Shown here: positions 1 to 63,177 of the stretch, piece after piece | How positions within the stretch are numbered: the stretch's first letter is position 1 | How the letters are laid out: each line of letters begins with the position of its first letter | Assembly: GCA_951406725.2 (NCBI GenBank) | Contig: OX597827.1 | Coordinates: 24,180,001 to 24,244,000, forward strand | Source of the DNA: Octopus vulgaris | Lineage: Eukaryota | Direction of reading: 5' to 3' | Length of the DNA: 64,000 bases | Notes under the pieces: model-generated | What the model was told of the DNA's origin: nothing | What the model saw: the letters and a program-made list of their open reading frames with translations, nothing else | The model's database searches: none | Made by a program: the position numbers and the translations under genes

Positions 1-616
1 TCTAAGTACGATCTAGACGACCCGATGCGGTTTGTCCAAGTCCACATTGGCACATTCGGGTTTTCTAGTCGAAACCTGTCGGACAGCTGAAAGCGGCCGA
101 GTAGGTTGGCGAGACTCTTGCACCCTCCCCTCTCCTATCAGACGCTCCCCTGCCCACCCGATCGAAACGTTCGTCTAAGACAGCGTTCCAATCCCCAACT
201 AGTACTAGAGTGCGTGACGTTCCCAGGAAAACTTCCAGACGTTTGAAATAATCTGACTGCCCTGCTCCTGTCGGTGCGTAGGCAGCCAGCAGTCTGAAAG
301 CACCGCCGTTACTACCGTCGACGTCGAGGACCACCAACTTACCTTCCGGATCCAAGAAGACTGTCCTTATTTTCAGGTCCAGGCCCTTCCGAAACAACAC
401 CGCAGTACCACCACCGCCCGCTCCCGGCCGACACGGAGATAGAAATATCTCGTATCCGCCGAAAAGGGCTGCGAGTTCCTGCGGGTCGGAGAGCCTGGTT
501 TCACTGATGGCTGCTACATCCACATCATGAAACCTCAGGTCGTTTAACAGGTGACCCTGTTTCCAAGGTGACCCGAGGCCTCTCACATTCAAACAACCGA
601 TTCTAAGATTTGCCAT
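1..616 (-). pseudogene. Tx1 ORF2 apurinic-like endonuclease domain, frameshifted near 120
   Basis: GCLNVRGL, AISET, YAP and LVGDWN motifs of L1/Tx1 endonucleases. Confidence 0.88.
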
Positions 617-658
617 GTTTCAAAAGTTAGGGGGAAAAAAAAAAGGAGAAAGAAGGCT

Positions 659-2101
659 CTACTTACTGTTGTTGGTGGTGGGGGTGGCTCCCTTGTGCTT
701 TTGCACGGGTGCTTCAATAATATTTTTGTAAAGTTTCTGAGAGAAACTTTTCCCTAACGATCCCACATCGTTAGGGAATATTTGTTTTATTTCGTTGTAA
801 ACTGTTTTGTTTATTTTTATTGTGAGAATGTGTGCTGGTGGTGTGTTGTGTGTAGGTATTATGAAATCTGTAATGTTTGTGCTTGTTTTGTTTTTCAAAT
901 ACTCAACCAGTTCCTGGTTTCTTGTATTCACTGCTGTAATTGTGTCTGTGTTTGTTTGTGTCTGTGGCAGTGGCAGTAGTGGTGTCGAAAGTGTTGTTGT
1001 TGTTGTTTGTTGTTGTGAATGTGTATTGTTGTTGATGTTGTTGTTGATGTTGGGAAGTACTATTTGTTCGTGTTTCCCCTGTAAATCTTTTTGTTTTTTC
1101 CTCCTTTTCTTTTTTGGAGGCACTATGTTCCATTCTCCTTTGTTGGAATCAGAGCTCGCACAATCCGAGATCTCTTCATCCGGCAAAGGAATGGTTGAGG
1201 GGTCTGCTTCAGTAGCAGGACGAAAGGTTTTTGGTTCCGCCGGTATCGGTGGTGCCGCTGCTCCTGTTGCTGTTGATTTTGCTGCAGTTGATTTTCGAGG
1301 TACTGGTGTCGGTGTTGGTTTGGTGGCGGTTGTTGTTGTTGGAGGTGGTGTTGTTCGTCTTGGTGCTGGTGTTGGTGTGGCAGCCTTTGGTGTTTCGTGC
1401 TGTTTTTGTTGTTTCTGTTGTTGTTGTTGTTGCTGCCTCTTGCTATACTCCTCCATTCTCTTTTTCTGAATGGGGCAGTCCCTTTTCAGGTGGCTTTCGC
1501 TACTGCAGAGGAAACATTTTGGCTTTCGCCCCTCTACAGTAACATTTAGCCTGGTCCCATCCAGTAAGATGACAAAGTCAGGTATGGCATTGATGTTTTC
1601 CTGCTGGATCTGTACCAGCAGTTGAATACCCATGCCCGACCAGTTCTTTTCTCGTACCCTCCGAACATTCAGAATAGTGGCAGTGTCCTCTATGCCATAG
1701 AGGACAGCCGCCACTAGCCATGAGATTTTCTGTTCGGGGGGTATTGTGTTGATTGTTATTTTTTGTACCTTACGCCCGAGGTACGTCGGGACGAGGAACA
1801 AATGTTCATTTTGCAAGGGCGAAATGGCGTTCGCCCTTGCAAGCTCCTCTGTTGGGAAGCGAACCTCCACGGTTCCAAAACGCTTCCCTCTTGTCACATA
1901 ACTCTTCTGGCCCCAAATGGGCTTCAGAGCCATCTCTAACTGTTGTGGTGTGGCGTTAAACAATCTTTTAGTTTTCTTTTCGAAAACTTTATAAAAGATT
2001 GTTCTTTTGTTTGTCTCTTGTGTGAGTTGTTGAGGTGTGTTGAGGAAAACACTGTTTCCCTCCTTTCTCAACAAATCTTGTGCCATTTTTATGTCTTCCA
2101 T
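659..2101 (-). CDS. Tx1 ORF1 (gag-like nucleic-acid-binding protein with zinc knuckle)
   Basis: CFLCSSESHLKRDC (CX2CX4HX4C), polyQ and Thr/Pro-rich linker; frame stays open upstream to about 2431, likely original ATG at 2441. Confidence 0.85.
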   Translation of the reverse strand: MEDIKMAQDLLRKEGNSVFLNTPQQLTQETNKRTIFYKVFEKKTKRLFNATPQQLEMALKPIWGQKSYVTRGKRFGTVEVRFPTEELARANAISPLQNEHLFLVPTYLGRKVQKITINTIPPEQKISWLVAAVLYGIEDTATILNVRRVREKNWSGMGIQLLVQIQQENINAIPDFVILLDGTRLNVTVEGRKPKCFLCSSESHLKRDCPIQKKRMEEYSKRQQQQQQQKQQKQHETPKAATPTPAPRRTTPPPTTTTATKPTPTPVPRKSTAAKSTATGAAAPPIPAEPKTFRPATEADPSTIPLPDEEISDCASSDSNKGEWNIVPPKKKRRKKQKDLQGKHEQIVLPNINNNINNNTHSQQQTTTTTLSTPLLPLPQTQTNTDTITAVNTRNQELVEYLKNKTSTNITDFIIPTHNTPPAHILTIKINKTVYNEIKQIFPNDVGSLGKSFSQKLYKNIIEAPVQKHKGATPTTNNSK

Positions 2102-2661
2102 TGTTATTTCTACATCTTCCGAAATTTGCTTCGCAGCAGAAGCAAAATCGTTAGAGACTTTTACATTTTTTTGTTGGTTCTTGTCTGTGTTTGTGTCTGT
2201 TATAAGTTTCTTTTCCTCCCTCTTCGGTACAGCATCACTTGTTGAAGGTAGAGGGGGGAAATCAAGAGTAACGTCGAACGCGACGTCCAGACAAGCATTC
2301 TCCCTTCGAACGGTGCGCGTGCTTTCCGTTTCGGAAGGAAGAGCTCTGTTGCCTTTTACGGCCTGAAATGGGTTGTACGCAACCCGTGACGTTGTCTTTT
2401 GTTCTTGTGGAGGGGGTGTTGCAAGCTCGTTTCAAAGCCATTTTGTAAATATGTGTGTGCAAAAAATGTCAATTTCAAAATAAAAAACAGCAATTTCACC
2501 CCGAAGGGGCAAAATTTTCGCCCAACCGACGAGCTCCGCAAGAAGCCGGTCGGTTTGGCTACAAAATATTAAAAAATATTCAAGCTTATTAAAAAATTTT
2601 CCAATAAAATTGGCACAAAACTCACAGAGCTGATTCACGTACGTCCATCGGCGTCGGAAGG

Positions 2662-5600
2662 AATAATAATAATAATAATAATAATTAATTCTTTTTTATT
2701 GGCCACAAGGGCTGACACACATGATTGGTAAACATAAAGGGACAAAACAGGACGAAAGGTTACAAAGGTTTTTTTTCGCTTTTGAGAAAATCCGAGTAAA
2801 AACAGTTCAACAACGAAAAACTCTCAATAGGGGGAGGCGCTTCGAAAGGTTCCTGGTGGAAAAAACCCCGTAAAAGCCAACGGGAACCTGGTCAAAAAGG
2901 GGGGTAGAGAGTCCCTTTTCTCCTTTTATATTAATTTTTTGAATCACAGGCGAAACCTGAGAACCGGTCCATTTATACTGGCCATTCTCCCACCTTTCAT
3001 AAAACTTGCTATCAGACAGCACTCTCCTCTCTAACCTCATCTTCCTTTTCAAGTGAAACTTGAAAAAGTTGATGAGGCCTTGACCAAAGAGGAAAGTGTC
3101 TGACTTTAGCCCTTTCAAACGGGACAAGGGACGACGGTCAAGCGGTAATAGATGACGGATGCGATGTACGCATTTACCACCTCCGCTCGACCTTTCAGGG
3201 ACAGCTTCCTCTCGGCCTATTTCTGGGTGAGACATGTCACCCTGCTCATCACCTCTTCCCAGTTTTTAATCCACCTGGAGGTCCGGACCGAACCAGACCC
3301 CGAGCAGTTTAACGGGTCCGTCTGTCCAGTGCCCTACGACGCTGTTGGACGGCATGGGCTTGCCTCTCCAGGTGCCCAGTTGCAAGCCCACAGACTTTTC
3401 CGCGTTAATTTTTGCCCCTGTCACCGCTTCGTACTCGTTTAGTGTCTCGCCAAGCAGGCCAATGTGCCTGTGGCTCGACACCACCACGGTGACGTCGTCG
3501 GCATAGGCAGACACGCTGTTTCCGCCTTCTAGATCGCGCGGGATACCACTCAAAGCCTCCAACTTGCGCAGTAATGGCTCGAGAGTCAAAATGTACAAGA
3601 GGGAGGAGAGAGGGCATCCTTGGCGGACCGAACGCGAGATGTCGAACGGTTCCGAAAGGTGACCGTTCACCCGTATCACCGAGCAGGCTTTACTCTGATC
3701 CAAGTTGATCAAAGCCCCACCCGCGCCAGCGTCGTTACCCACCCTCTCTATGATGTAGCGCATGAGATGGAGGTTGTCGTGTATCGACCTGGTCGGCACG
3801 GCACATGTGTGCGTCTTGCCGACCAGCTTGTCCACGGCAAGCGCCAATTTCTTGGCCAAAATCTTCAACTCTGCATTGAGCAGAGTTATGGGCCGAAAAT
3901 TCCCTATAACGTCCCCCTTGCTTGGGTCCTTTTTTAGCAAAGCCACCACCCCTCAACAGACAAAAGCAAGAATTCTCCCGTTTTGCTGCCAGTTGCAGTA
4001 GACGTTTGCCAACAGGCCCGCAAACAAGTCTGGCATTGAAAAGTAAAGCTCGTAGGGCAGACCATCAAAACCCGGCGATCTACCTCTCGTGCAACTCTTC
4101 AACACCGCAGTACCACCACCGCCTGCTCCCGGCCGACACGGAGATAGAAATATCTTGTATCCACCAAAAAGGGCTGCGAGTTCCTGCAGGTCGGAGAGCC
4201 TGGTTTCACTGATGGCTGCTACATCCACATCATGAAACCTCAGGTCGTTTAACAGGTGACCCTGTTTCCAAGGTGACCGGAGGCCTCTCACATTCAAGCA
4301 ACCGATTCTAAATTTTGCCATGTATCAAAGGTGGGGAACAAAAAAAGAAAAAAGAGCAAAAGGCTCTACTTACTGTTGTTGGTGGCAGGGGTGGCTCCCT
4401 TGTACTTTTGCATGGGTGCTTCGATTATATTTTAAATAGTTTCTTTGAGAAACTTTTCCCTAGCGATCTGACATCGTTAGGGAATATTTGTTTTATTTCA
4501 CTGTACGTTGTTGCGTTGATTTTTATTGTGAGAATGTGTGCTTGTGGTGTGTTGTGTGTTGGTATAACGTAATCTGTTATGTTTGTACTTGTCTTTTATG
4601 TATGCAACGAGTTTTTCATTTTTTGTGTTTATTGCTGTAATCGTGTCTGTTGGTGTTGGTGTGTGTGGCAGTGGTAGTAGTGGTATCGAAAGTGTTGTTG
4701 TTGATGTTGGGAAGCACTATTTGTTCGCGCTTCCCCTGTGTGTCCTTTTGTTTTTACCTCCTTTTCTTTTTTGGAGGCACTGTGTGTCATTCCCCTTTCT
4801 CGGTATCAGTGCTCGCACAATCCGAGCTGTCCTGATCCGGAAAAGGGATGGCTGTCGGGTCCGCTTCATCAGCAGCAGGGCGAAAAATTGTTGGTTCTGC
4901 TGGTAGCGGTGGTGTTGCTGTATCTGTTGGTGATGGTGACTGTGTCGGTGAGTTTTCTTCTTCCTTTTGTTGGTGTTGGTTTGGTGGTTGTTGTTGGAGG
5001 TGGTGTTGTTCATCGTGGTGATGGTGTTGGTGTGGCAGTCTTTGGTGTTTCGTGCTGTTGTTGCTGCTGCTGCTGCCTCTTGCCGTTTGCCTCCATTCTT
5101 TTTTTGTGAATGGGGCAGTCCCTCTTTAGGTGGCTTTCGCTGCTGCAGAGGTAACATTTTGGCTTTCGCCTCTCCACAGTAACATTTAGCCTGGTTCCAT
5201 CTGGTAAAATGACTGAGTCAGGTATGGCATTAATGTTTTCCTGCTGGATTTGTACGAGCAGTTGAATACCCATACCTGACCAGTTCTTTTCTCTTACCCT
5301 TCGAACATCTAGAATAGTGGCAGTGTCCTCTATGTCTGGGAGGACAGCTGCCACCAGCCATGATATACTTAGTTCGGGGGGTATTATGTCAATTTTTATT
5401 TTCTGGACCCTCTGCCCGAGGTACATTGGAACGAGGAACAAATTTTCATTTTCCAAGGGCGAAATGGCATGCGCCCTTGCATCCCCCTCTGTTGGGAAGC
5501 GAACCTCCACGGTTCTGAAACGCTTCCCTCTGGTGACATAGCTCTTTTTGCCCCATATGGGCTTCAGAGCTATTTCCAATTGTTGGGGTGTTGCGTTAAT

Positions 5601-5712
5601 CAGTCTTTTGTTTTTCTTGTCGAAAACCTTGTAAAATATTGTCTTCTTATTAGTGTCATGTATGAGTTGTTGAGGTGTATTGAGGAAGACACTGTTCCCC
5701 TCTTTTATCTCA
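2662..5712 (-). mobile_element. Tx1-clade LINE, copy B: 5'-truncated and internally deleted, with 3' UTR, AATAAA and (ATT)n tail
   Basis: ORF1 remnant closely similar to copy A (5010-5579); EN start at 4321; RT motifs NFRPITLLN, RQGCPLS, YADD in 3266-3949; tail at 2662-2690. Confidence 0.9.
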
Positions 5713-9329: not shown

Positions 9330-12210
9330 CAGGGGTGGGCGAACTTTTTTGATCGCGGGCCGCACAGTGCGTCTTTGGAACCTTGGCGGGCCTCATTTAT
9401 AAAAATCAAGTGAAAATATTTTTAAAGGCGGTTATAGACCTATAAACACACAATTGATTGAAAGGAAATTTTGTGAAATATTCCTGGTTTAAGTGATTTA
9501 ATTTATTTTTTAGAGTATCGGGTTCATGTTTTTCGGTTATTTGCTCCTATAGTTGAAATTATTACAGGAACCTCGGTTATTTTGGACAGCCTGTTATTGC
9601 TTACAAATTGCCAGGAACGGAATTTTCCTAGTAAAATCTGCACTAATTGTGGACAACCACCTCTTAATATTATGGACAACCATAATTCTAGGATACCCAA
9701 AATAAAAGATTTTAAAGAGAAATAACAGTTTATTAATATGAATTGAAATCTGAAATTAGAAACGTCACCTGAAGCATTTATTTGAAAAACAAAGCGGCTC
9801 TGTAAATAACAATGTCAATGAGAATGATGCAGCTGACTACTGTCATTTATCAGTTTGTCAAAATTAGGTGTCAAGTTGCTTGTGCTGATTCTTAACACTG
9901 ACTGAAGATTTGAGTCTGTGAGAAGTGATCGATTCTTCCCCTTGTTAATTTTCATGATGGAGAAAGTCTGCTCACATATGTAAGTTGATGCAAACAACAC
10001 AAACATCTTTCTTGCAAATTTTTTTAGATTTTGAAACTTTTTTGAATGTAGAGAAGCATAAAACTCAACCAGTGGTTTACTTTCAAACATCATCTTTAAA
10101 GAATTGTCGGCTTGCAAATGAATCAGTTCTATCTGCAGTTCCTCGGTAGTTGTTTCAATGTCACAGGCAAGAGGTGAGTTAAGCAAATCGAACAGGCCTT
10201 CAACTGCCTTGAAATCAGCAAATCTTCTAATGAATTCCTTTTGTAAAGCCATCAACTGGGAACTGTACTTGTCCGATGATTCTTGTGTAACAGACTGTGT
10301 TTTCAGCAGAGGGAAGTGAATAAATTTTTGCTCATTCAGCTGCTTGGCAAAAAGTCCAAGCTTCCATTGAAAAGCTTTCACTTCCAGGTACAATTCATGA
10401 GCAAATATACCTTTGCCTTGCAGTTTTGTGTTAAGTTCATTCAGCTTCTGCATTATGTCCACAGCAAATGTAAAATCACAAACCCATTCGTCACTCTCCA
10501 TTTCGTTTAAAAAGTCACAGATGTCTTGCATTTTGAGAAACATAAGAATCTCTGCTTTGAGGTCCCATACTCTCTTAAGAACTTTTCCAATGCTTAACCA
10601 GCGGACATTTGTGTAGTACAGCACATCAGTAAAATCAGCATCCACATCCTCCAAGAAACTTTGGAATTGCCTGTGTTTCAATCCCCGTGATCTTATTAAA
10701 TTCACTGCACGCACCACAGGTTCGATGACATGTTTGAGTTTTAAAGATGACTTACAAAGGCTTTCTTGATGTATGATGCAGTGAAAAGACAACACACTGT
10801 GTAGTGGAAAATCTTCTTTAATTTTGTCATTCAATAACTTCACAAGGCCGGAATGTTTACCGGTGAGTGAAGGAGCTCCATCGGTTGTAATGCTGGCCAG
10901 TTTATTTAGGGTTAATCCAGACCTGATTGAACTGTTAATGACACTGTTGAACAAATCTTTTCCAGCAGTAGTGTCTTTGAGAGACTCCATAGATAACAAT
11001 TCCTCTGTAATTTCAAAGTTCTCGTCAATTCCTCTGATGTAAATGAGTAACTGAGCAGTATCCTGAATATCAGTGCTCTCATCTAAAGCAATAGAAAACC
11101 ACTGAAATCGACCACTGGCTGTTAACAGCTGTTCATGAATATTCACGGCAATTGCATCAATGCGAGGAACAATAGTTCTTCGTGACAGGGAAATGGCTTC
11201 TACTTTTGACTTAACTTCAGGACACACAACGCTGACAGCATCAACCATACAATCTTTGATAAATTCTGCTTCTGCGAATGACTTGTTTTGCTTTGCAATT
11301 TTGTTGGCCAATATAAAACTTGCCTTTGTCGCGTTCCTTTGTAAAGAGGAAGTTTTATCAAACACATTTTGCTGTTGCTTCAAACGTTTTGTCAGATCAT
11401 TTGCTTTCTTTAGCAGTTCTTGTTTTGATAAATTGTGTCCAAAATTGGCATGCTTCGTTTGAAAGTGGCGTTTCAAATTATATTCCTTGAACACAGCAAC
11501 TGTTTCAGAACAAATCAAACATGCAGCTTTCACTCCAACGTCGGTAAAGAAATACTTTTCAGTCCAATTTTCATTAAAAACACGACATTCCTCTTCAATT
11601 TTTCACTTTTTAGATAGCTTCGAACAACTCATTTTGGGTAAATTTTGTCAGACAACAAAAGCTAGTTTGAAACACTCGTGTCTGTACTAAATTCAAATAA
11701 TCGATAGAGTGAATGATAACCAACCACAGCTCTGTGTCCAGAAAAAGCTGGTTCAAGCCCTTTTATTAACCTGGCCGGCTTCTTCATTGGAACGAAACGC
11801 ATCGTCCATCATGCCCTCTTCACCATCTATCATGTGATTTATTTATTTGAATGTTTCAAGCATATCGATTGACTCGTTGTATTGCCACAATACTTGTTTC
11901 ATTGTTCTATTAATTTTTGAGTTTGTAGGGTCTGACGAGAAAACAGAAAAGATATCTTCACCCAGAAATGTGTTTTATTATGATGTCATGGGAATATTTC
12001 TCGAAATTTTTCATCGCTTCACAGTAGCTGAAACAAACAGCGGACAATTTTGTGATGGTACGAAACAGTGAACTGAAATAAAATGCAAACTATTGTGAAT
12101 TACCGTACAACTGAAACAGTTACGAAGTATCTGCATAGAAGTTGGGATTTATAAAAGCTCTCGGCGGGCCGCATGAAAACCTATGGCGGGCCGTAGTTTG
12201 CCCACCCCTG
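9330..12210 (-). mobile_element. hAT DNA transposon, Buster/SPIN (GTF2IRD2-like) type, full length
   Basis: TIRs caggggtgggcgaact (9330) and agtttgcccacccctg (ends 12210); subterminal gcgggccgca motifs; internal transposase. Confidence 0.95.
9815..11632 (-). pseudogene. SPIN-like hAT transposase, 605 codons with a single TGA at codon 10
   Basis: MSCSKLSKK*KIEEECRVF..; BED-like CLIC..HFQTKH; catalytic LDESTD, TTDGA and CEQTFS; HCIIH; RWLS. Confidence 0.9.
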
Positions 12211-14760
12211 GTCTAGACGTACCCAGGAAAACCTCTAGACGTCCAAAGAAATCCGCCTGACCCGTTAAGGACAGTGCATAAACTGCCATCAGACGGAATG
12301 CACACCCATTTCTGCCATCCACGTCCAAGACAACCAGCCTACCCCCCGGGTCTAGGAATATTGTTCTTACTTTTACATTTAGATTCTTTCGAAAAAGCAC
12401 CGCGGTACCTCCACCACCCATGTTCGGCAGACAGGGAGAAAAATAAATGTCGAATTGATCGCCAAACATGGACGCGAGGGCCCGCGGCTTGCTGAGTCTG
12501 GTTTCACTGATAGCTACTATATCCACGTTCAGTGACTTGATGTTGTTTAGAAGGTAACCTTGTTTCCAAGCCGACGCCAAGCTACGCGCATTCACACAAC
12601 CTAATTTAAGCATAATTGACGTTTAAGAAATTTCTGTTTCACACACTACACTGGAAGAGAAAAGAGGCAAGAGGGAAGGCGACTTACTCATTTTGAAAGT
12701 TTCAGTTTTTTCTTCATCTTTTGTAGTGTCTTTGAGGAGGTGTTTGAATAGTTTTTTTGAGAGGTATTTTTGAAACCCCCCTACCGCATTTGGAAATATG
12801 GTTTTCAGTGTATGGTGTTGTGTTATGTGTACAATTCTTGTGTGTTTCGGTGGAGTGGTGCGCGGATGATTATTTGTCTTAAAGTCATCTTCGCAGATGT
12901 TCGTGTTTTTTATTGTCCGTGATTGTCTAAGGGGATGCTGTCCGGAGTTAAATATCTCCCTGCTTTACTTACTTGTTTGGTGGGCTTTTTTGGTCTTTTC
13001 CTTTTACCCCCTGTGGCTATTTGCCATTCCGTTGAACTTTTGGCGGACTCGTCGTCCAACGAATCAGAAGGGTGTAAAGGCAAAGCGTTTGGATCTATAT
13101 GTGTGTTTGTAAAAGGTGTTGTTGTTTTGTGTGGTGTTTGTGTTGTTGGGGTATTAGGGGCAGAATTTGTCTTTTCGTCATTGTTATTTGTTTTTTTGGT
13201 TGTTGGTCTGTCTTTTGATGTTGGTGGTGATGTTGTTTCTTTTGTTGGTTGCGATGTCGGAGGTAATTCTCTTCTTGGTGAGGGGGAAACAGCTTTTGTA
13301 TCGTCCGCTGTTTTTCCTGTCTTTTGGGTTGAAGGTGGTGTGGGTAGCAGGGGTTTCCTTCCAGGTTTGGGGAGTGGTTGCTGTTGCCTATTTCTGACAG
13401 CAGTTGCATAAATAGCATCTTGGCCTCTTGCCCTCCATCACTACATACAATTTTTGATCTTTTGCCAGTTGAACACTAGTTGGTAAATTGTTTATTGCTT
13501 CTTGGGAGATTTGAAGCAATATTTCGAGTTTTTTACCAGTCCAGCTTTCCTCTGGAATGTCAGCTATTTCTAAAATATCTGCTTCTTCTATATCGAAGCA
13601 GATGGCTGATACCAGCCACTGGGTATTCACTACTGGCGGCACATTGTTTATTGTAACTTTCGTAACTCTGCGCCCAAGGTAGCTAGGTACCATTGTTACC
13701 TGGTCTGTGTGCAGAGTAAGGGTTGAAAACTTTTATGCTAGTTCTTCTGTATGGAAGCGAACTTGCACGGTAGCAAATTTACTTCCCCAATTCACATAAT
13801 TTTGGAATTTCCACACGGAAAAGAGGCACTTTTCAATTTTTTCTTTAGGTAGGTTTTCTGGTCTTTTTGTTTTGGTGTTGAGTATTCTGTAAATGATGGT
13901 CTTCTTTTGTGTTTCTTCTATGATGTTCCGTGGAATATTTAAATGCATTGTGTCGCCTTCTTTGGTGAGCAAGGACTTTGTGTCTTGTATTTGTTGGTGA
14001 GTAAATTTTAGGATTCTTCTTTTCGGTCGTATGGCTTCCGCAAAATTGTTTTTTGTGGAGGTGGTGGTGATGTTTGTGGCAGAGTCGTTCGTAGTAGATA
14101 ACTGTGAAGTCGGGTTGTTTACCAGTTTTTGAGTGGAGGTCGCGATGTTAGCGTTCATGCTCACATTTGTGTTTGTGTTGTTTTCCCCCATTTCCCCTGC
14201 TTTATGAAATTGTGGTGAAAGCAGTATGGGGAACTCAAGGAGGGTGTCGGTGTTGATGGTAGAATCATTGGTTGCAATGACAGGGATTGGCCTTGTGACC
14301 TTGGTTTTGTTGTTGTTGGTAGTGGTACTGTTAGCAGAGGAAGCAGTTGTCATAGCAGAAGCTGCTATGGTGGTGGTGTTGATGGTGGAATCATTGGTGG
14401 CGACCTTTGCTTTGTAGTTGTTGCTGTTGTCGATGCTGATGGTGGTGGTGGTGTTAGTAGCGTTCAAACTATCAAGGGAATCCTGCTTTTTTGTTTTGGC
14501 GTCACGCTTGACTTGCGCCTCAGCCTCCTGGTGACCAGTAGCCATTTTGAAAATAAAAATGGCTAAAATATAACAGGCCTATGAGAAAATTTAAAATTTT
14601 GCCCACAAGGGGCGAAATTTTGTGTAGATATTAATCAAGGTTTGCAGTGGATGTTGTTGCACAACTTTTAAACACAAAATATTTGACAATAAACACTTTT
14701 GAACGTACAAAATGACCAACTTACTTGGAGCCCATTTGACTTGCGTCTGTCTGTCCAGAG
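12211..14760 (-). mobile_element. Tx1-clade LINE, copy C (divergent subfamily): 5' UTR, disrupted ORF1 (ATG 14545) and EN start (12613)
   Basis: ORF1 fragments homologous to copy A (KEGDTMHLN, VRF.TEELA, YLGRRV); EN MLKLGCVNARSL..AISET; cut by the hAT TIR at 12210. Confidence 0.85.
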
Positions 14761-14970
14761 ATAGATAGATAGATAGTTTGTACCTAAATAGGTCAGCCCT
14801 TGTCCAGTTGAACTTCGCCTGACATGCTGAGGTCGAAGGGACAAAGAAAACCTTTTTTTGCACCTGTTGATCATCTTGGTTTGGAGGATTCTTGGATTCG
14901 AATCTAGGCTTGGAGAAGGAAGTGTTAATTTTTACATATCACATATTATTTCTTCAAATCACATATTTAA

Positions 14971-29825: not shown

Positions 29826-32800
29826 CAAACTTTGGAAGCACTGAATGTGTTGGTATTTTACAAATTTTGAATGCAGTATAACTGAAAATAGCAGAGAAAG
29901 ATTAAGTATTTGCCTTAGAGGATGGAAAAAGGTTTCCAGCAGGTGGCTTGTCTGTAAAGATATATATGTATATATCACAGGTAAAAATGATTAATAAATC
30001 CAGGTAGATGTCTTGTAAGTATTCAGTGATTGAGTTTACATATCTACACATCAAATAATCAGAAACCAATAGCGTCACATTGAATTAACATTTGTGGTAA
30101 TTCCTCCGAAATCCAAAGATCACTTACAATTTCAGAAAACCTAGAGTATGTAAACTGAACAAGACTAGAGATTACCTCATACTTAGAGATTCTCATCTTT
30201 ATCCGATGATTATTACATCATACAAGACCAACAATAGTTTCTATTGTGTAAAGAATCTTTGGATAAAGAGAAAAATTCAATGTATTAGAAATTTATGAAA
30301 AGAAGTTTCAGATAGATTCATTTCTATTTTGTTCTTTTTACTTTATCCAAAAAAGGCTTTGATCACATCAAATTAATCTCCAAACTTCAAGATTAATGCA
30401 TGATTAATTCATCATCATCATCATCGTTTAATGTCTGCCTTCCATGCTAGCATGGGTTGGATGATTTGACTGAGGGCTGGCCAACCAGACAGCCGCACCC
30501 TGGCAGAGTTTCTACAGTTGGATACCCTTCCTAATGCCAACCACTCCATGAGTGTAGTGGGTGCTTTTTAAGTGCCCAGAACTGAATATACATGCCTTTC
30601 ATTTGACCAAATAACCCTAAATGCTAAAGGGTTATAATATAAAGGAAGAATAGAAGGTGAATGTAGCAATAAGTGGTTTAGAAATTCTAAGTTTCAGTTT
30701 AAACAGAATCACAGATCAATTTATTTACCAAACAAGTAAAACTGAATAATTCTATAAAAACAAATTATAAAATAAAAAAAGAAAAAACGTGAAAGAACCT
30801 TACCAATTGAGGACAAAACAATATCACAGACTGTTTTTTTAAAACCAGTACCAGTTAAATGGAAAGTTTTCCCAACTAAGGGTGGGATTAGACTAAGTCT
30901 GTCTTCATCTCCTAAAGGAATCTGCAAATAAAAGTTTATATAAAAAAAAAGTCATTTCTTTTAACATTTCATAGTAGTGTGGCTATCTCTCTCTTTCTCT
31001 CTCACTCTCAGTGGTTAGGGCAGCGGACTCATGGTCGTAGGATCACGGTTTCGATTCCCAGACCAGGCGTTGTGAGTGTTTATTGAGCGAAAACACCTAA
31101 AACTCCACGAGGCTTCGGCAGGGGGTAGTGGCAATCCCTTCTGTACTCTTTCACCACAACTTTCTCTCACTCTTTCTTCTGTTGGCCTACTTGCTTAGCC
31201 AGCGGGGTGGCGTCATTTGAAGGCTAAAACAATGTGAAGCGCATTGTGACCAGCGATGTGTAGCAACATCTGATAGCCTGGTCAGTCACGATGATATATA
31301 TATTGCATATGTAAGATAAAACATAGAGAGGACAAACAAGGACAAAGGGATTAAGTTGATTACATTGACCCCAGTGCGTAACTGGTACTTATTGGACTCC
31401 GAAAAGATGAAAGGCAAAGTCGACCTGGTGGAATTTGAACTCAGAATGTAACGGCAGACATACCTATTTCTTTACTAACCACAAGGGGCTAAACACAGAC
31501 AAACGGATTAAGTCGATTATATCGACCCCAGTGCATAACTGGTACTTAATTTATCGACCCCGAAAGGATGAAAGGTAAAGTCGACCTCAGCGGAATTTGA
31601 ACTCGGAACATAACGGCAGACAAAATACCACTAAGCATTTTGCCCAGTGTGCTAACACTTCTGCCAGCTCGCTGCCTTATGGTTACATGCAATCAGTATT
31701 TAGGTCAAATTTGTGCCTAAACTCCAGTTTTAAATGCCAGGATGTGATAGCTGTGTAAATGAGAATTGGCTGTGAGCAATGAACTGATGAAACTGGTGTG
31801 TAACAGAATGAAAGCAGAGACAAGCAAATAAAGGAAAACAACTGCAGAAAGGAGTCTATATTGGTAGGAAGTCATGAAAAATTCTGAGGTTCTTAACAGT
31901 TGAGATGGTAGACTCCAGGAAAAGGTAGAAAGGAAGTCTACAAGATTGATATTGCAGAGCTTGGTAGGGAAATAAAGTTACCATCATGGTATTTTATTCT
32001 ATCATTTTCAAGGTTTTTATGTCAGGGTATATAAGGAGTGAATGATAAACAGTGAGGTGAAGTATAACGGTTGGAAGGTGAACAGTGAGGGCATATGTAT
32101 AATTATAGGTGGTTGAAAATTAATTTACCTGAAGCACATCTTTTCCAATATTTTCTTTGTAGAAATCTTCAGCTTTTTCTATTTCCATGACATGAACCAC
32201 AATTTTATTATTATTTATTAGAGTAAGGAGAACATTTTCTGTGCCCTGGTTAAAGAAAAATAAAAATAAAAATGTTACAAAAACACATTGAAGGAAGTTT
32301 TTAATATGAAAAACTTGATTAGAAAACAAAATTTAAAACTATAATTTTGAAATCTGTTGTATGAAATAATTTTAAATGTTTGTTAATTTGGTTTTGTCTA
32401 ACACCACTTCAAGTTTTTCAATTATATTTTCAGTATTACTAACAAATATACTGATAGGTATTAGGTTGCAGAATTACCACCCCGACCAGGAAATATTCTT
32501 TTCTACTCTGGACTCGAAATTGGGGGGCAGTCGATTAGATTGACCCCAGTACACAACTGGTACTTTATTGACCCCCCAAAAGGATGAAGGGCAAAGTCAA
32601 CCTTGGCAGGATTTGAACTCAGAATGTAAAGACAGACAAAATACTGCTAAGCATTTAGCCCGGCATGCTAATGTTTCTGCTAGCTTGGCACCTTCCCAAC
32701 CAGAAGATATTGGACCATGGATTATGATGCTGGGGTCATAACATAGGATGTCATTGGTGAGATGTGTATTTGGAATGGTGAAGGGGAGACTCTTTATCAA

Positions 32801-35329
32801 AATGGAATGAAATAAACTGGAATGGAAGTGCAATTATGAAAGGCTGCTGAACATATAGAACGCATGGGATAAACAGGGATTACTCCATGATGACCCAACA
32901 CAGGGACCAGCAATGTGGTGGAGAAGAAAAGCCACAGGTCCATCGAGGATAGTTGCAGAGGTGTTTAAAACCTCTGGAGAGGTAGGATAAAAGATGACCA
33001 CCCAGATAGTTAATGATGTTGTACAAGAAAATGCTATTCCCAGTGATTGATGGAGCAGTATCATCATAAACTGCTACAGAGGCAAAAGAAATTCCAGAGA
33101 TAAGCGACTATAGATGAATTAAACTGCTCAACGAGGTTATGAAGGGACCTAATCCAATTGATCAGGGATAGAGAAGATGGACCTGCCTGAGATGCAATTT
33201 GTTGTCCTCGGGTACCATAGATGCTATCTTTCTAGTGAAGCAACTGCAGGGAGGATACTTGGCTAAGAATAAACAGCTGTTCCTGGTTTTCCTTTCTTTG
33301 AGTTGGAAAAAGTATCTGACAGGGTGCCATATTCTAGAATTTGGTGATCACTGAGGAAACTAGGTAAAGATCAGGGGTTCTCAACCATTTTTTATCCATA
33401 GACCCCTTTGATTACTATTTTATTCTGGTGGACCCCCATAGCCATACGATGTTTAAAAATTAGTTTTATAGAAATGTCTTTCAAATTCTTATTTTGTTTT
33501 TCTAACATTGACTTGTGTAGGTTGAACTTTGCAAAATGTTGGAGAAAGAAACCTTGCTGTTCCTTCCAGTACACCTAAAGCAGAATTTTTCAGGGGCCCT
33601 TAAAATATTGTGGATTCCCAATTTACTATTTTGTAGCATGGACCCTCAAGGTTGAGAACCACTGGTGTAGATGAATGACTTGTGAATACCGTACAAGCTA
33701 TGTACATGGATGCTGGAAGTGAGAGCTGGTATTGAATTCAGTGATAAATTCAATATAAAGTAGACACCTTTCAAGGTTCAATCTTTAGGCCCCTTCTATT
33801 CGTCATAGTCCTAAAGGCCATCACAGAGTAGTTTAAGACTGTCTACAAGAAATCCTATACACTGATCTAATTCACAAAGCTGCATCTACAGGGGAATTAG
33901 AGAGGAAATTCCAGGCATGGAAACGTAACTGAGAATCAAGTGGCCTTAAGGTAAACCTAGCAAAGATGAAGATTTTAGAAAGTAGGAACCTGAAGAACCC
34001 TGAAGATACCAAGGTTCTGTAGAAAAGAAGTAGGTATAAATTCCATATGTTGCACCCAATGTAAGTAATGGACCACAAGATTAGATATAATTAGCAAGGA
34101 AGATGGTTGCTTTGAAAATATAGTAGCCAGGATGGGTTGGAGATGGTTCAAGGAGATACTACCACTGCTGATAACAAAGATCTTTTCCCTTAAAGTGAAG
34201 GACGGATTGTGATAGAAGTTCAATGTCGTATGGTAGTAAAACATGGGCCTTGTCAGCACTGGATTAACCCTTAAGCGAAATAAGCATGTGCTTAGGGCAT
34301 TGAAGGGAGGGTGGGGATCACAGAAATATGTAAGACTAATTAGGAAGATCTGTTTAAAGACTTTGCAATTAAAGAAAGTTGGAGAAAACTTTTCAAATAT
34401 AAATGAAGTGGAAATATACAAAAACATTATTTTACATTTTTCTGTTGTTAGTTTCGTTTCATTTTGAAAAATAAAAATCTATTTTATGGTTTATTATTTT
34501 TTATACTTTGGATTACATATATGTGGGAGCACTAAAACCTTTTAAGTGCTTGGGGCCTCAATGGGTTTTAGTCTGGTCCTGGGCCTTGTATGCAGAGGAC
34601 TTGGGTTAGCATGTTGCATTGGATGTGCATGAGACAACGTCAACCTATGATGAAGGGCTGCCACTGCCAATAAGGATCTCATCATCGTTTAATGTCTGCT
34701 TTCCATGCTAGCATGGGTTATCATCATTTAGCATCTGTTTTCCATACTGGCAGCCCTTCCTAACACCAACCACTCCTTCTTTGGACACTAAAACTGCTTG
34801 CGAAGACCTGTTGAGGCAAGTGAAATCAAAATCAAATTCAAATTCGATGACTGGCGTCCATGCTAGCGGGGTGCAAAGAGCACCATACGAATGTGATCAT
34901 CGACAGAGCAGGTAACCGACTTCCGTGTCAGTGGCACTTAAAAGGCACCATTCGAGTGTGATTGTTACCAGCATCGCCTTATGGCACTCGAGCCCGATGC
35001 TAGTAGGGTGTTAAGAGCATCATCCGAACGTGATTGTTGCCAGAGCAGCTAACTGGCTTCCATGCCAGTGGCATGTAAAAAGACACCATTCGAGTGTGAT
35101 CGTTACCAGCATCGCTTTACTGGCACCTGTGCCGGTTGCATGTGTAAAAGATTCGCGCAAGGTCGTTGCCAGTATTGCCTGACTGGCCCTGTGCCGGTGG
35201 CACGTAAAAGCACCCACTACACTCTCGGAGAGGTTGGCGTTAGGAAGGGCAGCCATCTGGTTCGCCAGCCCTCAGTCAAATCGTCCAACCCATGCTAGCA
35301 TGGAAAGCAGACGTTAAACGATGATGATA

Positions 35330-50349: not shown

Positions 50350-51308
50350 AATAAGTTCTGTGTCCCTTCAGCAGTTTTATTTATATTTCTAGTCATACTT
50401 GACAAAATATTACATTCCACATTGTTACCAACGGATGTCTGTTCGTTTGAAGATCTTTGAAATAATGGTCCACAGCGCTGCTCCTTAGAATTTCCGCTTT
50501 ATTATGTGTAAATAGTGGACGAGGTAAGAACCACGATTTCATGTTTCCGTTTATTTTGTTCCCCTTTTTTATGGATTTATATTTTAATTAAATTATTAAA
50601 TATTTATATAATCTTAAAAACAGAAACATATTTGAGTTTAGTATCGCATTAAAATTTACCGTTTCGTAATTAGTGATTCGTTTCTGGTTCTTTGGTCTGT
50701 CAGCTGAAGATCCATGAACTTCAATTAAAACAGATGAAGCTATTTAATTCCTATTTCTTTACTACCCTCAAGGGGCTGAAGCTATTTAATTCCAATCAAA
50801 CCAAAGCATTCCTTCGATATAGCTCGACAAAGTCAAGACATTTCACTTGGGGTATTTCCGTGGTTTGTGGAGTATAGATATAACGAAATTATGCCAGCAA
50901 TGTCTCATTTTAAACTTGAAGAAAAAAAAAAAGCCTTGCATATTTGTTCTAACCTGTTTCATGTGTGTATGTAAAATCCGCAAATTTCCAAGCAGAAAAC
51001 AGAATCGAATTGTAATTTGCTTCCACGGAAATACCCAAAGTGAAGTATTTTGGTTTTGTCGAGTTATATCGAAAGAATGCCATATAATCTTAAAAACAGA
51101 AACATATTTGAGTTTAGTATCACATTAAAATTTACCGTTTCATAATTAGTAATTCGTTTATGATCATTTGGTCTGTCAGCTGTAAAGTTTGGTTTTACAA
51201 TGAACTGCAATTAAAACAGATGAAGCGATTTAATTCTAATCAAATCAATTATGTTTGTGTAATAATTACAAAGTTCTCTTTCTGCCAGACTCTTTAAATG
51301 TAAATCAA

Positions 51309-51392: not shown

Positions 51393-51641
51393 GTAAATCA
51401 ATATCTTCGAATAAATCATCCGGTTGTTTTGATTTGGCAATAATTAAGGTAGGGTTCAAATTCCGCCCAGGTCGACTTTGCCTTTCATCCTTTCGGGGTC
51501 GATAAATTAAGTACCAGTTGCATACTGAGGAATCAATCAAATCAACTGGCCTCCTCCCGCAAAATTTCGGGCCTTGTACCTAGAGTAGAAAAGAATAATT
51601 GAGGTAGGCTCGAACTAAGTTGTGCTGCTATTAGTCATTTC

Positions 51642-57776: not shown

Positions 57777-60700
57777 GAATTAGAGATATATAATTAGTAT
57801 ATATTTATACTGTGAAATTTGATTTAATACTAAATCTAATTTTTCCATGTAAGTTTGGAGCTATACTCCCTAATATTATTAAATATATATATACACACAT
57901 TTGTGTGTGCAGGCATGGCTGTATGGTTCATTATTCTGTGTGTAAGAAGAGGTATGTTACTGACTGAGATAGATTGTTACTGTACATTCCTATTAAATTC
58001 ATGTGTGCACTTTAATAGCATTATTATATTGTTTTTATTTGTTTTATGATTATATCTTCAAGCCACCAAGCTATTCGTCTAAGAAGATCAATTTGTATTT
58101 TTGTTTGTTGTAACACTTAAATTCAATAAATAAGTTAACAATCATTTCTTATACATGATCAATATGACCTAACTGAATAACTTTCAATATTCATAGTACA
58201 ATTTTGGCAGTGTTTTCAAACTTGTCAATGACAGGTGTTTCTGCTAGTAATCACATATTTACTGCAAAGAAGAATTTTGTTCTTATCTAAATTTATTTTT
58301 ACTGTTTTTATCAAATTTCAGCGTCCACGCCGAGTTGGTGCTAAATACACAGGTGATCACATAGCAGCTGATGAACATATCGTACCTGTAATGAACTATG
58401 ATTATGATGGGAAAAGAGACATCTGGAATGGTTATGATCCTGAAGCACACCAAAAGAAACTCTTTGGAGAATACTCAAAAATATTACAGGTAATAACAGG
58501 CTTTTGATGTTTCACAGCTAAGCAGTTACCTTGTGGTAGATTAAATCTGCCATTTTGAAGTAGTTGTCACATATTATTGAGACAATGTCATATGTTGTTG
58601 TGAGGCAGTAAATTGCTTCTGTTTCATTGAAAGTCATATATTGTTGCGATACGAATGTCATATAGAAATGTGAGACCATATTGTATATTACCTGTGAAGG
58701 CCCAAGCTTAGCTGCACAGGTGTAAGCATAGCTGTATAGGCATAACAAGGCTGCATAGATGCAGGCTTGACTGTGTGGCTTGCTTCCCAACCATGTGGTT
58801 GCAGGTTCAGTTCCACTGTATAGTACCTTGGGTAACAGTCTCTGCTACAGCCTTTGGCTGACCAAAGTCTTGTGAGAAAATTTGGTAGACAAAAACTGAG
58901 AGGATAATCATTTATATATACATAGATGCAGGAGTGGCTGTGTGGTAAATAGCTTGCTTACCAACCACATGGTTTTGGGTTCAGTCCCACTGCGTGGCAC
59001 CTTGGGCAAGTGTCTTCTACTATAGCCTCAGGCCAACCAAAGTCTTGTGAGTGAATTTGGGAGATGGAAACTGAAAGAAGCCTGTCATATATATATGTTT
59101 GTGTGTATGCTTGTGTCTGTGTTTGTCTCGCCACCATCTCTTGACAACCGATGCTGGTGTGTTTATGTCCCCGTAACTTAGCAGTTTGGCAATAAAGACC
59201 TATAGAATAAGTACTTGGCTTACAAAGAATTAGTCCTGGGGTTGATTTGCTTGACTGAAGGCAGTGCTCCAGCATGGCTGCAGTCAAAAGATATAAAATG
59301 AAAGATTATCCACTTAATTGCCCATGTTCTCGGGTTCCCAACTGGGAACCAAAACCATGATTAGTGTTTATTTCTGATGAACCTATATCACTCACTGGTC
59401 TTTGTAAGATACTGGTATCATAGCTAGACTAGGCTTTGCTGATGAGGTCTAACAAGATCAGAACATTCCTAAAGTTATCACCCTTGCTACTAAAGCTCAA
59501 ACTTATTCTTCCCTGTGTTCCAGATTTTATTAATCATAATACGAATTTTTTTGATTGAAAAAGTTGTCTTCCATCCTTGCCTCTTCTTTTTCTTTATAAA
59601 ATTCATCACTGAAATAATTATTTGCTCTCATTACTTCAGATATAATTTTAAATTAATTAAAATTTTTTTTGTTTACCACATCGACAACACCAACACTCTG
59701 TCTTCACTAACTCAACATGCCATAAACTGTCTTACACTTGAATATATTGGTATTTGTTTGAAATAGTCACCGTTCGCTGTTCTACACAAACTAAACTATT
59801 TGATTACTTTGTTACAGGCCAAACAGTTGCTAAAAGAAGAGAAGGATATTGAAGATATAAGGGAGGACACTGTACAGAGGGTGAGATAAACTTTACTATT
59901 GTTGTTGTCATTCATCATCATCATCATCGTTTAACATCCGCTTTCCATGCTAGCATGGGACGATTTGACTGAGGTCTCGTGAACCAGACACCAGTCTGAT
60001 CTGGCAGAGTTTCTACAGCTGGATGCCCTTCCTAACACCAACCAATCCGAGAGTGTAGTGGGTGCTTTTACGTGCCACCGGCATGAGGGCCAGTTTGGTG
60101 GTACTGGCAATGGCCACATCCAAATGGTGCTTTTTATGTGCCACCTGCACAGGAGCCAGTCCAGCGGCACTGGCAACGTCCTCGCTCGAATGTTTCACAT
60201 GCCTTAGCACAAGTGCTAGTAAGGTGATGCGAAAATGATCACACTCGAATGGTGTGCTTAATGTGCCACCGGCACGAAGGCCAGTTTGTTGCTCACGCAA
60301 CGATCTCACTCGTATGGTACTCTTAGCGCTCCACTAGCAATGGATGCTGGTCACCAAGTTTGATTAATATTATTATTATTAATATTATTATTATTATTAT
60401 TATTATTAAGGCAGCAAGCTGGCAGGAGAGATGCTTAGCAGTATTTTGCCTGCGATTAAATTTCACTAAGGTCCACTTGCCTTTCATCATTTTGGGGGTC
60501 AATAGATTAAGTACCAGTGAAATACTGGGGTTGATGTAATTGACTCATCCCCTCCCCCTAAAATGGCTGCCTTTGTGGCAAAATTTGAAACCATTATTAT
60601 TATTATTATTATTATCATTATTATCATCATCATCAGCATCAGCATCATAATCATCATTATTTTTATTATTGTTGTTGTTCTTATTTATTGTTAATATTAT

Positions 60701-63177
60701 TGTTATTATTTCTTGTTAATATTATTATTATTATGGTGGTGACCTGGCACATTGGACGAAATGCTTACGTTCTGAGTTCAAATTCCACTGAGGTCGACTT
60801 TGCCGTTCATCCTTCTGGTGGTGGTCGATAAATTAAGCACCAGTTGCGTACTGGGATTTGATGAAATCGACTGGTCCCCTCCCCTCCAATTCCAGGCCTT
60901 GTGCCTATAGTAGAAAGGATTATTATTATTATTATCATTATTATTATTATTATTATTATTTAAGGTATGAAGGCACATGGCTCAGTGGTTAGAGTGGTAT
61001 GCATGGGTGACTGCTGGTCTTCCTAAACAACTTTGCCCGGACTTGTGCCTGAGAGGTTAACTTTCAAGGTGCAATCCCATGGTCAACCATTCCGAAAGTG
61101 TAGTGGGTGCTTTTTACATGCCACCGGCATGGGGGCCAGTCAGGAAGCACTGGCATTGACCATGCTCAAATGATGCTTTTTATGAGCTACCAACACTGGA
61201 GGCAGTCAGGTGGCATTGGCATCGACCCACGCTCAAATGGTGCTTTTTACATGCCACCAGCATGGGCGCCAGTTGGGCGGCATTGGCATCGACCCACGCT
61301 CAAATGGTGCTTTTTACGAGTCACCAGCACTGGAGCCAGTCAGGTGGCATTGGCATCGACCATGCTCAAATGGTGCTTTTTACGTGGCACCAGCATGGGC
61401 GTCAGTCGGGCAGCACTGGCATCGACCTATGCTCGTATGGTGCTTAACAGATTGGTGAAAATGTTAGAGTGTTCAGTCAGGATGTCTTACTGTATCTGTT
61501 TCAGCTCTGTTCTGCATTCAAGTGATTATATTGGTACCATTGTCTTACCATTCTCTTGGGTTCATCATTGGCATAAAGAATAACTTGCATGCAAAGACAA
61601 CTGCATGTCTTCCATCGAACAAACTTTGCCCAGGCTTGAGCATTACGGGTCTAAATCCATGACCAACACTGACTGACAGAGGTCTTAGAATTTTGCTGCT
61701 CGTTTTTAAAGTTGAAAATATATGAAATATAAAAAAAAGATGTATATTTAATGCAATGAGGTCAACAGTTCTGAGAATTATAACCTGAGAAGATAAATTG
61801 TTGTTTATTTTATTTGGAAATACTCACATTTCTTATTTTGTATCTTTTTTTTTTTTCAGACGCGGGACAGTGATGATGAAGACAAATATGCAGATGATGT
61901 TGACATGCCTGGTCAGAAGTTTGAAACCAAACAAAGAATCACAGTTAGAAACCTGCGTATTCGAGAAGACACTGCAAAAGTAATTTCCATTTTCCAATTT
62001 ATTTTTGTTTCTGCAATTGTTCTGGTTTTCCTTCCATGTGGCTCCGATCTGTTACCATTCTTGTCTTCAACATGTTGATTTTTTTCATTACTCTCTGTTC
62101 TGTTTTTAATCAGCCAAGATTCTATGTGGTGTCTGGACCTGTTAGACATTGCTTAGCATCACACTGTGCTACCTTAAAACAAGGTCACATTGGACAGTGT
62201 ATTTTAAGAGGTACAAAAAGATGAGATGGTCAAGGCTGGAATGCCCTTGATCATAAATCTGCTTCATAAGGGCTGCAGTGTCCTAAACAACAACACTGGT
62301 TAGAAAATTACTATTTGTAAATCTCACAACAAGAGATATTCAGCAACAGTATTTTGGAGTAAAGATTGTTTGCCAACATAACATGGCAGTAATATTCTAA
62401 TTTATAGATCAGTGACTAGTTGTCATTTTAAAAACTATATATTTCAAATGGGAATTTGGCAGTGCCACCTCTAGCTGAACAATTATGCTGTGCTGATGAA
62501 GGGAAATAACCCAGAAATCTCGATACACAGATATTGTTTTGAGGTGAGTTGGGGTGCTAGATTCCCTTGTTTGAAAATATAAGGACACAGATTGTGTCGC
62601 ATAGCCAGCTTGGGATGATGTCTCCTGAGGCTAAATTACAGCAACATTCGTCCTAAACCAGGACTGCTGTGTTATGTTGGCAAACAATCTTTACTCGAGC
62701 AACACTGGTGTCGAGAGAGAGAGAGAGATAGAAAGCCCATCAGCCAAAATCTCCTCGAATACTTCAAGTTAAACGTTCATAAAATTTTCTCTCTAATTGC
62801 CATCAGAATCAGCTGTAAGAACTAGGATCATCACCATATTGAAATTCTCAGTGTCCAATTCATCTGTTATTGCCAGTAGTTAAGCTGCTGGAAGCTGAGA
62901 ATTGAACTCTGATGGACACCTGCATGCTATATTCTTCATTGAATTCATTGTTCCCTCCCTCATCTTGCTGACAGCATATCTCTACTTAGATTTCTTGTGA
63001 TACAATTTCTGTGCCTCTTTCTTCTCAATGTCAGCACTCTTTGCAAACTACTCTTATTAACTTTTCTTATCTTTTGCAGTATTTATATAACCTTGATCCA
63101 AATTCCAGTTTTTACGACCCTAAAACAAGGGCTATGAGAGAGAATCCTTTTAAAAATTCTGGAAAAGAAGAAACAGA
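54340..63177 (+). CDS. SLU7: Pre-mRNA splicing factor SLU7, first 7 coding exons (gene continues beyond the window)
   Basis: Exons 54340-54512, 54987-55137, 56510-56590, 58322-58489, 59818-59880, 61860-61979, 63080-63177; GT-AG, phases consistent; [34 protein letters not shown] knuckle, [26 protein letters not shown]. Confidence 0.95.
54987..55137 (+). CDS. SLU7: SLU7 coding exon 2
   Basis: [21 protein letters not shown]. Confidence 0.93.
55782..55827 (-). ncRNA. Minimal type I hammerhead motif
   Basis: gacaa CTGATGA a ggctgg-agtttata-tcagct GAAA c GTT gtgtt. Confidence 0.6.
56091..56136 (+). ncRNA. Minimal type I hammerhead motif
   Basis: gacag CTGATGA a ggctgg-tgggtata-tcagcc GAAA c GTT gtgtt; palindromic AACGTT in place of helix III. 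Confidence 0.68.
56510..56590 (+). CDS. SLU7: SLU7 coding exon 3 (zinc knuckle)
   Basis: [22 protein letters not shown]. Confidence 0.93.
56670..57548 (-). mobile_element. Degenerate Tc1/mariner (maT-like) element
   Basis: [48 protein letters not shown]. Confidence 0.75.
58322..58489 (+). CDS. SLU7: SLU7 coding exon 4
   Basis: [24 protein letters not shown]. Confidence 0.93.
58925..59290 (+). mobile_element. tRNA-derived SINE with CORE-like segment
   Basis: tggctgtgtggta..gggttcagtccc..ccttgggcaagtgtctt; related copies at 58757-58900, 40340-40530(-), 44790-45065(-). Confidence 0.75.
59818..59880 (+). CDS. SLU7: SLU7 coding exon 5
   Basis: AKQLLKEEK..; GT-AG, in frame, low conservation. 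Confidence 0.75.
60361..61000 (+). repeat. (ATT)n tracts alternating with tandem SINE copies
   Basis: (ATT)n, SINE 60408-60600, (ATT)n, SINE 60733-60920, (ATT)n, then another SINE head near 60970. Confidence 0.8.
61105..61445. repeat. Minisatellite of about 66-bp units (about 5 copies) related to the RTE 3'-UTR repeat unit
   Basis: Repeated ggtgctttttacatgccacc.gcatggg.gccagtcagg..gcattggcatcgacc..gctcaaat. Confidence 0.85.
61860..61979 (+). CDS. SLU7: SLU7 coding exon 6
   Basis: [29 protein letters not shown]. Confidence 0.93.
62488..62530 (+). ncRNA. Type I hammerhead ribozyme motif, sense strand of a SLU7 intron
   Basis: ctgtg CTGATGA a ggg-aaataa-ccc a GAAA tc-tc-ga TA cacag: perfect 5-bp helix I, full core, AUA cleavage triplet. 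Confidence 0.72.
63080..63177 (+). CDS. SLU7: SLU7 coding exon 7
   Basis: [23 protein letters not shown]. Confidence 0.93.

Follow-up and report, generated by a model that had tools for sequence, protein, structure and literature searches.

The window analyzed here is a stretch of 64,000 nucleotides from Octopus vulgaris (contig OX597827.1, forward strand, 24,180,001 to 24,244,000), and overall it is repeat-rich animal DNA. Its long open reading frames (ORFs) include what we take to be a hAT transposase (9815-11602), a pogo-type transposase (15585-16961), a Penelope element (18100-21000), a Helitron fragment (38712-40438) and an RTE LINE (41671-43709). A 422-aa ORF on the minus strand (48320-49588), for which no Pfam match was found, is presumably an exon of a host NOA1/YqeH-type GTPase. 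A further repeat that is abundant, and that contains internal tandem units ~65-130 nt long, was seen at 34770-36190, 43770-47070 and 59910-61450. Three LINE copies are central to this study, and their features are as follows.

1..2660, minus strand: LINE copy A, with a 5' UTR, an ORF1 with a CCHC knuckle and the start of ORF2; it continues beyond the window edge
2662..2690, minus strand: (TTA)n separating the 3' end of LINE B from the 5' end of LINE A, a likely target site
2691..5712, minus strand: LINE copy B, Tx1-type, with Pfam RVT_1 and Exo_endo_phos, its parts placed by tblastn
2691..2943, minus strand: 3' UTR of LINE B, with the ORF2 stop at 2944-2946
2691..2759, minus strand: tail of LINE B common to SINE tail type 1, with a U-rich block, a hairpin and AATAAA at 2695-2700
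2701..2713, minus strand: LINE B hairpin GCC-CUUGU-GGC, three pairs, a suboptimal fold
12200..14758, minus strand: LINE copy C, of a different family, its 5' end adjoining (GATA)n at 14760-14776

The window LINEs encode an APE endonuclease and a reverse transcriptase (RT) in ORF2, as identified with Pfam, and this combination is that of the L1 group. When a 64%-identical relative was compared with solved structures, human L1 ORF2p was the closest (1e-50, against 1e-24 for R2). ORF1 of LINE A contains a C-x2-C-x4-H-x4-C knuckle, and its atlas neighbours also have CCHC. Such a Type I ORF1, with a CCHC knuckle and not Transposase_22, is characteristic of the Tx1 clade according to the available portion of PMC5203782. 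Pfam gave no match to LINE ORF1, and the only three homologs of LINE A ORF1 were from Octopus sinensis and O. bimaculoides (58-77%). The named matches to the window RT were from Argonauta and a cuttlefish; no named Tx1 element was among the RT matches, and cluster and atlas look-ups also returned no Tx1 name. We refer to LINEs A, B and C as putatively "Tx1-type", a label based on domains and ORF1 type and not on a tree with named Tx1 references.

LINE B is 5'-truncated and has internal deletions, leaving an ORF1 remnant, the endonuclease, the RT and the C-terminus, and it is 82% identical to LINE A across the part they have in common. Its true ORF2 terminus is the TGA at 2944-2946, downstream of a frameshift, and the tail of B is therefore the terminus of a 3' UTR of about 253 nt, ending without poly(A). 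Target duplication was looked for at the ends of LINE B and was not found. Both intact LINE 5' ends adjoin microsatellites (A at (TTA)n, C at (TATC)n), and 2.3% of the window is near a microsatellite; this putative target preference is seen in n=2 only.

Six SINE copies were found in the window. Their bodies are 73-85% identical and diverge past the body into three tail types. These copies and one tail-only insertion are listed below.

31313..31464, minus strand: older SINE copy, starting at the head site, with the proximal half of tail type 1 and without its end
31465..31682, minus strand: SINE with the distal half of tail type 1 and an internal deletion, ending GAAATA at the head of the older copy
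32498..32694, minus strand: SINE with a degenerate tail type 2 and a 17-bp duplication (14/17)
50752..50776, minus strand: tail-only insertion of type 1, 25 nt, flanked by 17-bp repeats at 50735-50751 and 50777-50793
51454..51593, plus strand: 5'-truncated SINE with tail type 2 and a 15-bp duplication (14/15), without a repeat tail
60408..60592, plus strand: SINE with tail type 3 and (ATT)n on either side
60733..60918, plus strand: SINE with tail type 2 and (ATT)n on either side, the tail being 28/33 identical to distant Tx1-type 3' ends

As is expected of SINEs, the six copies are short, non-coding and dispersed, and target duplications are present among these elements. The body may be that of a Nin-domain SINE. 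ARAGORN and Rfam found nothing when a tRNA-related head was looked for, and box patterns were seen in the four heads searched as a B box in 1/4 and an A-like box in 3/4. Target duplications of 15-17 bp were present in 3 of the 8 elements tested, plus one empty site, 51221-51237, which is paralogous to the site of the tail-only insertion. The 15-bp and 17-bp type-2 duplications were matched by 3 and 7 of 400 null pairs, respectively. No duplication was found at the two nested copies (31313-31464 and 31465-31682), and the test was uninformative for the two copies flanked by (ATT)n, owing to that repeat.

From the tail-only insertion, the type-1 tail can be seen to end in GAAATA, with no poly(A). 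This end lies before GG, in one case in the SINE's own head. For types 2 and 3 and for LINE B, the sequence that follows the end is AAT/ATT, and the two type-2 copies with duplications end AAAAG before AAT, like LINE B. Two side observations concern these ends. In the tail-only insertion, truncation falls precisely at the hairpin stem's 5' base, and the type-1 end GAAATA is matched in reverse complement by TATTTC/TATTTT, which lies directly behind the insertion point in the SINE head (31450-31480). The original prediction described a cct(t)tgtg motif just before an (ATT)n tail at about 60570 and 60897. The motif is real and corresponds to the loop of a 4-bp hairpin, but the repeat did not hold up as a tail. 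We rejected (ATT)n as the default SINE tail, as it is present at both ends of two copies and at the 5' end of LINE A. Because of these two-sided flanks, the 5' ends of A and C at microsatellites and the three copies that have 15-17 bp duplications but no repeat tail, (ATT)n/(TTA)n was read as the likely target, and (ATT)n is probably a target rather than a tail.

Over its final ~70 nt, LINE B aligns with the tail of a single SINE subtype, type 1, in two blocks that are collinear (26/31 and 22/30). Scored jointly and in order, these blocks reached 64, compared to a mean of 30.3 and a maximum of 46 over 2,000 shuffles, and the best joint score elsewhere was 40 among 12,648 other 80-nt windows; the SINE pieces used for this score were picked with the match already known. 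Single blocks were modest, their scores being reached by 6-37 of 2,000 SINE shuffles (p 0.003-0.02). The type-1 pieces agree with each other at 23/25, and the LINE B tail is more divergent from them. Each of the four strings on which the match had originally been proposed occurs once, at 2689-2721 and 2730-2759 in LINE B and at 31468-31497 and 31319-31348 in the SINEs, and all four are at the 3' end of minus-strand elements, in agreement with the claim of a common orientation. The two SINE strings are genuine tail matches, but they come from two different nested copies with half a tail each. The expectation that the similarity would exceed shuffled controls was borne out by the joint score. 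A 3' end of the RTE LINE (~43740-43830) was rejected as the type-1 donor since its joint score against the SINE pieces was only 29; in a permissive scan against the LINE B tail, this RTE end reached 40.4, near the 43.6 of the SINE.

The family of LINE B is probably not the exact partner of the SINE subtype that it resembles, given its 73-84% identity, ~16 extra nt and different junction. The sequence of its tail is like that of type 1 and its junction is like that of type 2, which makes the family a probable relative of the direct drivers. A search for the two-motif pattern gave 13 metagenome matches, none similar to the window; viral contigs yielded nothing. Among the metagenome contigs, a ~200-nt repeat beside an L1-like RT (L003:600-760, L008:2370-2588 and L013:110-310, on GC-rich contigs) has both motifs internally, with a joint score of 42-45 that is probably due to chance.

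The match could be misleading if a SINE had merely inserted at the end of copy B, which the original prediction had recognized as a possible refutation. Contigs from four public runs were aligned to 2600-3260, with 2600-2700 masked. Starting at 2692, contig cover extended unbroken into ORF2 and was lower at 2784-2806. The substitution T2769G was found in 21-41 contigs, in almost all of the depth and in 4/4 runs, with 25-32 letters remaining to the contig end. G2786A was found in 10-14 contigs; one contig joins 2760 to 2818 and another spans 2811-2970. No substitution in 2701-2768 exceeded 8% among the 40 of 52 rows listed; summed contig depth is not equivalent to copy number. The contigs with T2769G and G2786A indicate that copies other than B join the tail, the UTR and ORF2 in 4/4 runs. 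The tail belongs to the LINE family and is not a SINE dropped on copy B. With this masking, the contigs bear on the family's tail short of its last bases and junction.

Each of the three SINE tail types has a 4-bp hairpin with a YUNGW loop. A motif with a three-GC-pair stem and a YUUGW loop, defined after the tails were seen, occurs 8 times in the window, compared to a mean of 0.45 and a maximum of 3 in 60 shuffles; 4 of the 8 are at tails, 1 is in the 5' UTR of LINE C and 3 are unassigned. RNAalifold predicted the 4-bp stem unprompted from an alignment of 17 rows, with 94% of the cells able to pair. In this alignment, 3/4 pairs change on both sides, a count that is inflated by kinship among the rows, with the double-sided changes all coming from 4 window rows and the 11 distant rows nearly invariant. 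The LINE B hairpin has 3 pairs and is not the minimum-energy fold (z +1.2; -2.8 vs -3.1 kcal/mol), and single-sequence folding gave no support for a stable structure in the LINE B tail. The stem-loop that was expected to be shared was thus recovered as a covarying hairpin common to the SINE tails and to the distant Tx1-type 3' ends described below, and it is weak in LINE B. The SINE tails retain the hairpin but without an exact AATAAA. Two hallmarks of a stringent LINE/SINE pair are present: a shared 3'-terminal sequence and a conserved stem-loop with compensatory changes, the latter only 4 bp long and recognized post hoc.

Similar hairpins were noticed around LINE C. Its 5' UTR (14590-14620, minus strand) contains a long hairpin with a CUUGU loop, as in the SINE tails, which matches tail type 3 at 25/32 and type 2 at 16/18, each reached in 1/2,000 shuffles; one background window equals its score for type 3, and we regard it as a lead only. 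LINE A has a homologous hairpin at 2492-2516 (minus strand), but with a UUCG loop. Across the (TATC)n from the LINE C 5' end, the unassigned segment 14776-14875 (minus strand) is predicted to form a long hairpin (z -2.4). The segment 14776-14960 was considered as a homologue of the B UTR and was rejected, its score being reached in 863/2,000 shuffles.

More distant Tx1-type LINEs were found at 66 loci (L014-L076, L078, L082 and L083), all from one record, CAXXMW; L077 and L079-L081, partial matches from other records, were excluded from all counts. CAXXMW is filed as a bacterial MAG and contains many contigs of head-to-tail eukaryotic Tx1-type LINE arrays with a period of ~6.5 kb, which are probably host contamination. 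The ORF2 of these loci is ~45% (42-50%) identical to the window RT. They form at least two families, ~50% apart, and for one of them a cuttlefish protein with 74% identity was found. GGC-CUNGU-GCC lies 29-33 nt upstream of AATAAA in 63/66 loci, with no poly(A) there and no occurrence elsewhere, and the other 3/66 stop before the 3' end. The hairpin was placed at the 3' end of the upstream copy by the 5'-truncated downstream neighbours in L047, L048 and L057 and by foreign flank in L044. A second, variable hairpin seems by eye to precede AATAAA in the distant 3' ends; it was not predicted by RNAalifold.

The type-1 pieces had no match in 63/66 distant loci in a first control (maximum joint score 44), and the motif count in that control gave rise to a match of type 2. 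The type-2 tail at 60866-60918 agrees with distant 3' ends at 28/33 and 29/35, and against six loci its score was reached by 0, 0, 1, 1, 2 and 1 of 300 shuffles. A second type-2 copy matched the distant loci weakly (4-179 of 300 shuffles), and the type-1, type-3 and LINE B tails were at chance level (50-295 of 300 shuffles). When the SINE head and body were compared with the distant LINE UTRs, 10/12 comparisons were at chance and 2 were nominally high (1 and 6 of 500).

In these comparisons, a single SINE body carries at least three tails that share the hairpin of poly(A)-less Tx1-type LINEs, and we consider it probable that the tails were taken from different Tx1 families. One alternative accepts a Tx1 origin of the tails and sees in the hairpin a signal for 3'-end formation or stability, in a LINE that is not stringent. 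AATAAA does lie downstream of the hairpin in LINE B and in the 63/66 distant loci, and the similar hairpin in the LINE C 5' UTR means that it may be a general RNA-binding element. However, the hairpin is kept in SINE tails that lack the exact AATAAA, and a Pol III transcript needs no polyadenylation signal. We consider this explanation unlikely. Another possibility is that only type 1 is linked to Tx1 and that types 2 and 3 were driven by an RTE or CR1/L2-type LINE whose tail is (ATT)n. This would fit the published partners of Nin SINEs, which are CR1/L2 in the portion of Ohshima Table S1 available (PMC3472496), and of bivalve SINEs, which are CR1, CR1-Zenon, L2 and Nimb in the available text of PMC11481361; in addition, type 3 had no significant LINE match among those compared. 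The agreement of type 2 with Tx1-type 3' ends and the two type-2 copies with 15-17 bp duplications and no repeat tail argue against it, as does the RTE end, scored against type-1 pieces only. The rival donor compared was the RTE 3' end. We regard such a driver as quite improbable.

Convergence, in which SINE and LINE would each have acquired short U-rich tracts and a small hairpin independently, has in its favor that the blocks are short with modest single-block p values and that the two-motif pattern is also found in an unrelated repeat (3/13 metagenome matches). The joint score is nonetheless far above both the shuffles and the other windows, the three repeat loci score 42-45 and the distant UTRs ≤44, and the match is 3'-terminal in both SINE and LINE. 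We think convergence very improbable. We give about as little weight, or slightly less, to a flow in the reverse direction, in which a SINE tail was inserted at the end of B or the LINE family acquired it by 3' transduction. In its favor, no duplication was found at LINE B, the contigs cover the tail short of its junction, and two head/body comparisons were nominally high. Against it, other copies bridge tail and UTR, the remaining 10/12 comparisons are at chance, the LINE B tail differs from the SINE tails more than they differ among themselves, and lineages whose ORF2 is 42-50% identical carry the hairpin at their 3' ends.

Tail sharing between SINEs and LINEs is a textbook principle. In the reading that we favor, that of one SINE with tails from several Tx1-type families, the SINE would have taken its tails from the 3' ends of these LINEs, with the direction from LINE to SINE. 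The Tx1 ORF2p/RT would bind the tail hairpin, the endonuclease would nick the target, and the RT would copy the SINE RNA into the nick by target-primed reverse transcription; each tail would then steer the SINE to its donor's target. The hairpin rather than poly(A) is likely the means by which Tx1 LINEs recognize and spread the SINE, and recognition would then be "stringent", with mobilization in trans. A broader possibility, which we put forward tentatively and think somewhat doubtful as a whole, is a cephalopod Tx1 hairpin code (4-bp stem, YUNGW loop, no poly(A)) that spans LINEs of 42-50% ORF2 identity. The SINE would swap tails among target-specific families, and the tail would choose both carrier and site, its own head for type 1 and ATT repeats for types 2 and 3; the hairpin may also mark a LINE 5' UTR.

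Most LINEs read a structured tail, whereas mammalian L1 takes any RNA with poly(A), and the reason for this difference is still to be explained. If the broader possibility is true, it would provide an animal stringent system in the L1 group and would back the idea that the L1 clade was stringent in its ancestry. With a 13-nt hairpin, natural stem variants and passengers, a poly(A)-less animal relative of L1 would make ancestral stringency testable by standard assays and would identify a probable driver of some of the SINE load of O. vulgaris, which is up to 11.6% of the genome according to the available part of PMC13282606.

Our literature searches gave no Tx1-tailed SINE; Repbase, Dfam, the 1994 octopus SINE paper and the O. 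vulgaris annotation supplements may contain the pair. None was named in the portions seen of PMC3747384, PMC4758252, PMC5786205, PMC5804259, PMC10294476, PMC11481361, PMC3531059 and PMC13282606, and the portion examined of Table S1 of Ohshima 2012 (PMC3472496) has no Tx1 partner. The comparisons that follow draw on parts of the papers cited. Crocodilian SINEU and Tx1-Mar (Kojima 2015, PMC4494074) are similar to the octopus case in that SINEs were inferred to be mobilized by target-preferring Tx1 LINEs. SINEU differs in its snRNA heads and poly(A), and no LINE with the SINEU-1 3' end was found in that study. The link there is shared targets, whereas in the octopus it is tail homology and a hairpin. 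Kibi, Koshi and the crocodilian (TTCC)n families (PMC4494074) target microsatellites, which the 5' ends of LINEs A and C likewise adjoin; the octopus units are (TTA)n and (TATC)n, and the preference is from 2/2 intact 5' ends only.

Bivalve conserved-domain SINEs that swap tails (PMC11481361) also have one body with several LINE-derived tails, and their tail homologies of 35-61 bp at 72-95% span the octopus range. Their donors differ, being CR1, CR1-Zenon, L2 and Nimb, with no Tx1 in the text available. The mechanistic model used here comes from zebrafish ZfL2-1/ZfL2-2 and eel UnaL2/UnaSINE (PMC4176376, PMC3747384), which likewise have a 3' stem-loop with a loop that gives specificity. In zebrafish L2 the loop sets specificity and the ZfL2-1 stem can be swapped (PMC4176376), a precedent for the fixed loop and varying stem seen here; "TX1" in that paper, in the part available, is a construct name and not the clade. 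These stringent systems are of the L2 clade and were shown by experiment, whereas the octopus system is of the L1 group and is proposed from sequence. A further likeness is to ZmSINE2/3 with LINE1-1_ZM in maize/sorghum and SINEX-3_CR with L1-1_CR in Chlamydomonas (Ohshima 2012, PMC3472496), in which an L1-group LINE and a tRNA SINE have a common 3' end of 45-80 nt and, as in the octopus, a hairpin with a conserved loop and a variable, compensating stem. Those LINEs are green-plant L1s, and the Chlamydomonas pair has poly(A). The octopus case, in contrast, has an animal host, Tx1-type LINEs, no poly(A), a YUNGW loop and three tails on one SINE body.
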